Shown one piece after another: positions 41,933 to 45,807 of a DNA stretch of 64,000 nt. The stretch comes from Escherichia coli (GTDB lineage Bacteria; Pseudomonadota; Gammaproteobacteria; Enterobacterales; Enterobacteriaceae). Where the stretch lies: the NCBI RefSeq assembly GCF_044324875.1, contig NZ_CP172185.1; one strand, 5' to 3'. Position 1 is the first letter of the stretch; each line of letters starts with the position of its first letter. The translations under genes and the position numbers were made by a program. The notes beneath the pieces are model-generated. The model did no database searches. It worked only from the letters and a program-made list of their open reading frames with translations, and was not told where the DNA came from.

Positions 41933-44479
41933 TCACGAAAAATACTGCTGTAATAGCGGCGTGTCGTGATCCTGATTGGCAGGCGGCATGTTGCCGATAG
42001 ATTTGGTGCGGAACGGAATCACCTGTTCACGACCATCAACCTTCACAATCTGATAGAACTGCGGCAGGTTGAAGTTGATGAAGCTTGAGCCGTAGGTAAA
42101 ACGGTCGTGCGATGACGAGTAGAAGCGACTGACGTCACGCACCAGCTCCTCTTTGCTGCCTTCGCAGTGGTGATACACCTCAACCCGGTTGCTTTCGTCG
42201 AGAATGTAGATATTAAAGCCATTCTCGTCTTGCGTTTCTTCGAAAAAGAACTGGATGATCCCTTCGCTGGCAAAGCCGTCCACCACCGCCGGTAATTTGA
42301 CGTGATTGGTTTCAACCTGCACTGACAGGCCGTGCAGTTTGTTATGCGAAATAGCGCCATAAAACTCGATGGCATTTTCTAGTTTCTGTACCGATACATT
42401 CAGGCGTTCGAAGAATAAGCCCCAGGTTTGACCAGAAACGCGCAGCGCCTTGAAGCGCCCGGTTTCCTGGCGGGTGCTGGAAAGACGCAGTTCAATGCAC
42501 TCAGAAACCAGTTGCTGTACACGAGTACGGATTAATCCGCGCAGATGCTGGCTGTAGCAGAAGACTTCCACGCTATCTGGCGGTGCGGCGTCCTGATGCA
42601 TTTTGCCGAGAATAGTTTTCAGGGCTTCGATCATCGACTGCTCGCCGTTGAAGTGCAGCGTACGCACTTCGTTCCACGAGTTGCGGTACAGCAGGTCAAC
42701 GCTACCTACCAGGCAATTTTGATTCTCGCCAAAGCTGAAGACATCCAGCTTACGGAAATCAAAATGCACCACCTGATTGCGGAACGCAGCTGTCGGGTCA
42801 TATTCCAGGTTAACGATAATCGCCAGATGGCGGATCTCACACGGGCTGTAGAGCGCCTTCGGTGTCGGTGCAGGTAAGCGCAGCGGGAAATGGTGCGACA
42901 CGTCGGCGACCATCTCCTGCAACTTAGGCAAATCGACAATGCCGTTACCTTTAATATACAAACGGGTGCGCGAGGTCAGCAGGCCGTTAAACCACGCCCA
43001 GGCCACTAGCTTATTAAGATAACGGTTATATTCCAGCGGCTGATGGCTGATGATCGACTCAATATTTGGCGCGCGGTTATACAGATACCAACCTGAACGG
43101 TTAGCCCGGCCCGGCGGCACATAAATAAAGGTCAGATTCGGTTCCGAGAGATCGGGCGAAATCTGCGGGTTTACCAGCGTCACTTTACCTGGCAATGCTT
43201 CAAACGCGGCATACAGTTTACGCGTCAGTACGCCGATATCCTGCGGACTGGCGGAGACGCTAAGGTTATTGCGACGCGCAAAGCGGATCAGATTACGGTA
43301 GCTCTGCATCATTGCGTCGAGCAGCTCGTTGTGCGCCTCACGCACCTGATCAATCTTCCAGTTAGCGCGGTTATCGAGCATTGCCAGACGAGCATCGTCC
43401 CATTCCCACTCTTTCACTAACTGGGTTAGCACTTCACGACGCCAGCCTACGCAAGCGCGTTCACGGCTGAGTTTTTCGCACACTTTTAAATAGAAGCAGC
43501 GGCGTACTAAATCCAGACGGGTGAAATCTTCAATCGCCGTCAGGTACTCAGTAACACGCTCCAGCATCATGCAGTAAGGATCGAGGCCAAACGATACAAT
43601 CTCGCCGTCGTGCAAACGCTGTTTGATATCTTTCGCCAGCAGTCGTGGGTTGGGGTATTCCCAGGAATAGGCTTCCAGTAGCAGTGTTTTCAGCACCGCT
43701 TTGTATGGGGAATCGATACTCTTATAGAGCTGCCAAAGGCTGGCACCAAAGTACTCTTCGGCAGAAAGTGAGCTTAAGCCGCCGAGATCCAGCCATTCAT
43801 TTGGCGTCAGCACGCCCTGCGCGTAAAGCGTCATCACATAGTCATCGTAATGCTCTTCTTCGTCGCACGGCACCATATTCCACAGAATACGCTTACCGGC
43901 GAGACGCACGGCGGTACGATAAAATTCGTCAAGCAGCAGTATATGCTGGGTGGAGCCACAATCTTCGCCCCCCAGGCTGCCGCTTTCATTATGACGGAAG
44001 CGATTTTCATCAATCAGGAAGAAGCTAACTTCCACGCCCAGCGAGGCGGCCCAGCTTTCCAGCAGGCTGCATTTACGTTGTAGTAACTGGCGCTCTTCGC
44101 TATCAAGCCAGGATTGATGACAGACCCAGATATCCAAGTCAGAGGAACAACTTTGCCCTACGGACGAGGTGCTGCCCATGGTGTATACACCAGTAATTGG
44201 AAGCTCACCTTTCGGCGGGTCCTGTACTGACATTCCACGATACAGTTCAAGCTCGTTCAGGTAGTGGCGTTGAGTTTCATCAGGCGTGTAAAGGCAAATG
44301 CCTTTGGGAACGTTACCATCAAGGTAACCCGGCATTAGCGGATGGTGATAGTGCAACAATGTCGGCAGTAGACTGTAGACCTGTTGGAATGCAGGCCCCA
44401 TAGCAGCAAGCGCGCGATCCACACGCAATTGATTTATGGCATCCAGTCTCTGTTTCAGAGTCTCAATATAGAGGTACAA
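41933..44479 (-). CDS. cyaA: Adenylate cyclase (class I)
   Basis: 848-aa ORF whose first codon is TTG (revcomp of caa at 44477-44479), then [16 protein letters not shown]..., consistent with the known UUG start of E. coli cyaA. Confidence 0.95.
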
Positions 44480-44865
44480 GACGTATCGCCTGATTTGCTA
44501 CCCGTCATGACTGTGATTCCGCCAACATCAACGGTAACACGCGGCATTCGGGATATTTCGTATGTCAAAGGTAACCGTTACCACTTTTCGCGCCTGGTTT
44601 TTTTAGTTTCACGACGAAAAAATGGTCTAAAACGTGATCAATTTAACACCTTGCTGATTGACCGTAAAGAAAGATGCGCTACATACAAGTGTAGCACCGT
44701 TTATTCTCTGTAAATTCCTTATTACGACGGCGTGAAACGCCTGTCAGGATCCACTGCCAGACCTCATTTTACGGTTTGCGCAGGCGTCTACGTTTCACCA
44801 CAACACTGACATCGCTCTGGCAAGGATGTTAGGATGGACCACGGATGATAATGACGGTAACAAGC

Positions 44866-45807
44866 ATGTTAGACAATGTTTTAAGAATTGCCACACGCCA
44901 AAGCCCACTTGCACTCTGGCAGGCACACTATGTCAAAGACAAGTTGATGGCGAGCCATCCGGGCCTGGTCGTTGAACTGGTACCGATGGTGACGCGCGGC
45001 GATGTGATTCTTGATACGCCGCTGGCGAAAGTAGGCGGAAAAGGCTTATTTGTAAAAGAGCTGGAAGTCGCGCTCCTCGAAAATCGCGCCGATATCGCCG
45101 TACATTCAATGAAAGATGTGCCGGTTGAATTCCCGCAAGGTCTGGGACTGGTCACTATTTGTGAGCGTGAAGATCCTCGCGATGCCTTTGTGTCCAATAA
45201 CTATGACAGTCTGGATGCGTTACCGGCAGGCAGTATCGTCGGGACGTCCAGTTTACGTCGCCAGTGCCAACTGGCTGAACGCCGCCCGGATCTGATTATC
45301 CGCTCCCTGCGCGGCAACGTCGGCACTCGCCTGAGCAAACTGGATAACGGCGAATACGATGCCATCATTCTTGCCGTAGCCGGACTAAAACGTTTAGGTC
45401 TGGAGTCACGCATTCGCGCCGCGTTGCCACCCGAGATTTCTCTTCCGGCGGTAGGACAAGGTGCGGTGGGCATTGAATGCCGCCTTGATGATACACGCAC
45501 TCGCGAGCTGCTTGCCGCGCTGAATCACCACGAAACTGCACTGCGCGTTACCGCAGAACGCGCCATGAATACCCGTCTCGAAGGCGGATGTCAGGTACCA
45601 ATTGGTAGCTACGCCGAGCTTATTGATGGCGAAATCTGGCTGCGTGCGCTGGTCGGCGCGCCGGACGGTTCGCAGATTATTCGCGGTGAACGCCGCGGTG
45701 CGCCGCAAGATGCCGAACAAATGGGGATTTCGCTGGCAGAAGAGCTACTGAATAACGGCGCGCGCGAGATCCTTGCTGAAGTCTATAACGGAGACGCCCC
45801 GGCATGA
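44866..45807 (+). CDS. hemC: Porphobilinogen deaminase (hydroxymethylbilane synthase)
   Basis: ORF track begins at 44845; known HemC starts [20 protein letters not shown] (313 aa). Confidence 0.9.

Follow-up and report, generated by a model that had tools for sequence, protein, structure and literature searches.

The codon at 44479..44477 on the minus strand of the window (the whole 64,000-nucleotide stretch of Escherichia coli DNA that was analysed) is almost certainly the true start codon of cyaA in E. coli, a UUG preceded by a weak, normally placed Shine-Dalgarno (SD) sequence; we assign this reading a probability of about 0.97. The TTG start of cyaA is a long-known textbook feature, and the region is the K-12 initiation region base for base. 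Biologically, the result restates a known point, namely that adenylate cyclase is kept scarce partly by means of a poor start codon, and the comparisons across genera and across 5,400 genomes contribute no more than figures for the strictness with which the cyaA TTG is kept. For annotation, the start of cyaA is fixed at 44479, and a rule that admits only ATG would truncate the gene. The features that define the start are as follows.

41933..44479, minus strand: cyaA, coding for class I adenylate cyclase in 848 codons and a stop (from the list of open reading frames, NCBIfam and Pfam)
44477..44479, minus strand: cyaA initiation codon TTG, UUG in the mRNA (from the sequence, the open reading frame, the RefSeq start, K-12 identity and the cross-taxon comparison)
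44498..44500, minus strand: in-frame TAG closing the cyaA frame, 7 codons 5' of the TTG (from the sequence)

The plus strand reads CAA at 44477-44479 and the minus strand, from 44479 to 44477, TTG. The coordinates of the original prediction are therefore exact; it gave no strand, and the gene lies on the minus strand. Within the 848-codon open reading frame at 41933..44479, this TTG is the first ATG, GTG or TTG in the list of open reading frames. The literal translation from it begins with the ten residues first written down for it, and residue 1 in the cell would be fMet despite the TTG of that literal translation. Read 5' to 3', the preceding in-frame codons are TAG, CAA ATC AGG CGA TAC GTC and then the TTG, and a second in-frame stop, TGA, is found upstream at 44530. 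Between the TAG (44500..44498) and the TTG there is no ATG, GTG or TTG. Given a stop 7 codons upstream and no start codon in between, an in-frame upstream ATG is impossible in this window, and the feature named at the outset as the one that would speak against the TTG is thus absent.

CyaA from the window matches the NCBIfam class I adenylate cyclase equivalog NF006977 over residues 1-848 of 848 with 2049.3 bits (cutoff 1761), and carries the Pfam domains PF12633 (Adenyl_cycl_N) on residues 5-200 (E 1.2e-82) and PF01295 (Adenylate_cycl) on residues 228-825 (E 8.7e-259). Its near-identity with the characterised E. coli enzyme indicates that the product would convert ATP to cAMP. Upstream, hemD-hemC lies on the opposite strand, divergent from cyaA, both in an identical genome and in K-12, and cyaY lies downstream of cyaA in K-12. 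Alignment with K-12 cyaA, the check originally proposed, confirms the start: MG1655 b3806 (3991153..3993699, 2547 nt) has the same start base and the same 848-aa product length, and no difference separates the two sequences between 270 nt 5' of the start and the end of codon 30. Over 481 aligned bases they differ by 2 substitutions, both well upstream of the start, in the intergenic stretch nearer to hemC. The K-12 UUG initiation region (Roy, Haziza and Danchin 1983; Reddy, Peterkofsky and McKenney 1985, as cited in PMC5499595) does not differ from the window at the start site. In an identical E. coli genome, RefSeq starts cyaA at L001:1882, which corresponds to window position 44479. Where the K-12 gene starts, the gene in the window thus has TTG as well, in a frame closed upstream, as expected of a UUG-initiated cyaA.

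Within the species, the start region is nearly invariant. The 661 bases around the start (44200-44860) are 100% identical in many complete E. coli genomes, and this 5' region is present in 5425 of 5426 of them. The interval from -30 to +31 is identical in 5418 of the 5425, and the one variant genome inspected carries a change at -25 with the annotated start unchanged. A search of the complete E. coli genomes for an ATG or GTG start in the otherwise identical 61-base context returned zero exact matches. One of the 5426 genomes lacks a match to the cyaA 5' region; an extra copy of the region is found on one plasmid record, and at least one genome contains two copies.

Independent support for the start comes from a comparison with other species, for which cyaA 5' regions were collected by a single degenerate DNA pattern on the LLHxxHPxxPGY motif, which lies 40 codons into the gene, so that sampling is independent of the start codon; 118 of the 120 pattern matches were confirmed as cyaA by BLASTP. 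At the homologous codon, TTG is present in 30 of 31 Enterobacterales loci, spanning E. albertii, Citrobacter, Enterobacter, Klebsiella, Serratia, Yersinia and Erwinia as well as Pectobacterium, Photorhabdus, Xenorhabdus, Edwardsiella, Budvicia and Rosenbergiella. The same codon is TTG in all 13 Vibrionaceae, in Aeromonas and Psychromonas and in one gammaproteobacterial metagenome-assembled genome. The three Pasteurellaceae differ from one another, with TTG in Aggregatibacter, GTG in Haemophilus haemolyticus and ATG in Cricetibacter. Among the 66 loci from Pseudomonadales and other distant groups, 48 have an ATG 15 codons further upstream. These Pseudomonas-type class I cyclase genes share with E. 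coli cyaA the homologous N-terminal domain and the LLHxxHPxxPGY motif and, unlike the E. coli gene with its UUG, begin at an ATG about 15 codons further upstream; the UUG start is therefore characteristic of one side of the family, that of Enterobacterales, Vibrionaceae, Aeromonas and Pasteurellaceae. The single Enterobacterales locus without TTG, in the metagenome-assembled genome Enterobacteriaceae bran_bin.7, reads TTT at this codon, with the upstream block and the downstream codons intact. This TTT may reflect a mistake in sequencing or assembly, or the start may really have been lost.

The pattern of substitution is the strongest single test of the cyaA start, and it shows that coding constraint begins at the TTG. 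Across 32 Enterobacterales sequences, the entropy of codons 2-26 by codon position is 0.33/0.09/1.11, while positions -60 to -16, divided in the cyaA frame, give a flat 1.81/1.83/1.83. This test bears directly on the nearest in-frame ATG.

44399..44401, minus strand: Met27 ATG, nearest in-frame ATG, internal to the protein as judged from coding-type variation in codons 2-26 and from profile coverage

The real start could be this conserved ATG at 44401..44399, the TTG being only the first permissive codon of the frame. An ATG occupies codon 27 in nearly all Enterobacterales and Vibrionaceae, and its SD pairing (-3.1 kcal/mol) at least equals that of the TTG. The codons between the two, however, vary almost only at their third positions, and wobble that begins right after the TTG means that codons 2-26 are translated and that Met27 is not the start. 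The NCBIfam profile also aligns from residue 1 and the Pfam N-terminal domain from residue 5, and the same N-terminal segment can be aligned with an internal part of Pseudomonas CyaA, whose ATG lies 15 codons further upstream. Finally, cyclase yield shifts when the UUG is mutagenized (Reddy 1985, as quoted in PMC5499595). We consider a start at Met27 very improbable.

Initiation at the TTG is served by an SD sequence of modest strength within a short conserved segment, which is also overlapped by a reading frame in another register.

44486..44491, minus strand: weak SD AGGCGA, -12 to -7; its duplex with the 16S 3' end is worth -2.9 kcal/mol
44480..44494, minus strand: conserved non-coding block ATCAGGCGATACGTC, -15 to -1, covering the SD and the spacer (from column entropy)
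44455..44508, minus strand: putative out-of-frame 17-codon upstream open reading frame across the cyaA SD and TTG (ATG 44508, SD -4.8 kcal/mol)

The SD position is conserved: at equal distance from the start, Enterobacterales have CAGGCGA and Vibrionaceae CAAGGAA. The cya SD is described as normally positioned (PMC7177335). SD strength was considered as a discriminator between starts and set aside: downstream of the start, the frame offers TTG, GTG and ATG at codons 18, 20 and 27 respectively, and all in-frame candidates pair weakly, from -3.8 to +1.6 kcal/mol.

A start upstream of the TTG would have to use either the in-frame ATC at 44494 or the out-of-frame ATG at 44508 together with a frameshift. 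The ATC lies after the TAG, and its anti-SD pairing is slightly better than that of the TTG (-3.8 kcal/mol); no site in the region has a stronger SD pairing than the ATG at 44508, 29 nt 5' of the TTG (-4.8 against -2.9 kcal/mol for cyaA). Conservation argues against both. At codon -5, where the window has ATC, Yersinia and Acerihabitans have ACC and other sequences TTC, ATT or something else, and the ATG at 44508 is confined among the sampled cyaA loci to E. coli, E. albertii and Citrobacter. Variation in the block from -15 to -1 shows no three-base rhythm and peaks at -6, a first codon position; in the cyaA frame, the block is therefore non-coding. In-frame stops stand close to the TTG in other genera: at codon -2 in Vibrio mexicanus and -4 in V. 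gelatinilyticus, which exclude an extension there, at -6 in Pectobacterium, Xenorhabdus, Aggregatibacter, Enterovibrio and V. bivalvicida, and at -7 in Mangrovibacter and Pseudescherichia. Also on the side of an upstream start is the E. albertii type strain NBRC 107761, in which a 1-base insertion 30 nt upstream of the TTG (GCGAAATC versus GCAAATC) brings the ATG corresponding to 44508 into frame with cyaA, with no stop between them; the cyaA start of that strain could be mis-annotated or truly extended by 10 codons. For the gene in the window we judge an upstream start to be even less probable than one at Met27.

The block itself is conserved beyond what a weak SD would seem to need. Its mean column entropy is 0.48, against about 1.8 at -60 to -16 in the same 32 Enterobacterales sequences, and its Enterobacterales consensus, ATCAGGCGAnAYGTC, is nearly invariant; Vibrionaceae keep only the CAAGGAA at the SD position. 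It is conceivable, if unlikely, that the block is an operator for a translational regulator, either a protein or an sRNA, or that it acts together with the 17-codon upstream open reading frame or with a start-sequestering pairing to codons 10-12. Were the block to have such a role beyond SD and spacer, translation of cyaA would be actively controlled at initiation and not just set low by the UUG. A literature search for control of cyaA through its leader, an upstream open reading frame or an sRNA found nothing relevant.

We also examined the RNA around the start for structure. RNAalifold on positions -30 to +48 of 16 Enterobacterales sequences pairs GUCUUGU, which runs across the start codon, with ACAG.GAC in codons 10-12 at -4.6 kcal/mol; the codon 10-12 arm of this helix (44446-44482, minus strand) includes a conserved rare AGA arginine codon. 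As a conserved structure the helix was rejected: the observed values cannot be told from those of shuffles (65-86 of 500 do as well), and the pairs, mostly invariant, offer no covariation support. A single-sequence fold of the roughly 206-nt leader with the start is unremarkable (z = -0.79), and an Rfam scan of 44300-44900 at E <= 1 matched no known RNA family in the leader. The leader and the intergenic region contain two sequences that resemble CRP sites.

44633..44648, minus strand: CRP-like site TGTTAAATTGATCACG, 169 nt 5' of the TTG, 2 mismatches in the 10 specified bases of TGTGAN6TCACA
44512..44527, minus strand: second CRP-like site, within the leader, 48 nt 5' of the TTG, 2 mismatches in the 10 specified bases

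The first of these may correspond to the CRP site of the CRP-repressed cya P2 promoter that Aiba is reported to have described in 1985. A consensus promoter scan of 44400-44900 gave 2 matches where about 1 is expected, neither of them at the expected position of a cya promoter.

The consequence of the UUG for expression is a matter of published record. In the mutagenesis of Reddy, Peterkofsky and McKenney 1985, quoted in PMC5499595, UUG, GUG and AUG starts of cyaA gave cyclase synthesis in the ratio 1:2:6, which upholds the original statement that the UUG limits CyaA synthesis. Mechanistically, initiator fMet-tRNA mispairs with the first base of UUG, so that initiation runs several-fold below that at AUG, and UUG and weak SD together hold down CyaA and hence the capacity for cAMP synthesis. 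The UUG of cyaA is reported as conserved in many Enterobacterales and other Gammaproteobacteria (PMC5499595). Selection presumably keeps it, either to avoid the harm of too much cyclase or for the distinct response of UUG to physiological state. Conserved sub-optimal starts on genes whose product is low or controlled are also known from spoT (UUG) and infC (AUU) (PMC5499595, PMC7177335). The AUU of infC differs from the cyaA start in being a non-canonical codon that is sensed by the gene's own product, IF3, in an autoregulatory manner. No autoregulatory factor is known to read the cyaA UUG, and the analysis found none.

A constant throttle on synthesis is one account of why the UUG persists. 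The other holds that it is kept mainly as a condition-sensitive device that answers to polyamines, to ppGpp and IF2 or to ribosome competition in starvation. Cold, nutritional state and ppGpp affect messages that begin with UUG least of all, a property that has been linked to the conserved UUG of cyaA and spoT (PMC5499595), and cya is counted in the polyamine modulon, among genes whose inefficient start codon binds fMet-tRNA better under the stimulation of polyamines (PMC7177335). It also agrees with a condition-sensitive role that TTG rather than GTG is held across Enterobacterales and Vibrionaceae and that neither ATG nor GTG replaces it in the otherwise identical E. coli context. Such conservation, however, is expected of throttle and sensor alike and so does not separate them, and the use of TTG, GTG and ATG within Pasteurellaceae and of ATG in Pseudomonas means that UUG is not essential to class I cyclases. 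We regard the condition-sensitive role as possible and hold it tentatively, with the odds leaning against it; the position of the start codon is the same in both accounts.

The divergent neighbour presents the opposite case to cyaA with regard to gene starts. The longest hemC open reading frame begins at ATG 44845 on the plus strand and encodes 320 aa, and RefSeq starts hemC at the third in-frame ATG, 44866, giving 313 aa (MLDNVL...), so that a longest-frame rule over-extends hemC in the window. The original remark that alternative start codons have to be considered when gene starts are set in this window is a fair one, since cyaA needs its TTG. Between hemC and cyaA, at 44676-44697, lies an inverted repeat, GTGCTACACTTGTATGTAGCGC, with a T-rich tract, flagged as terminator-like on both strands.
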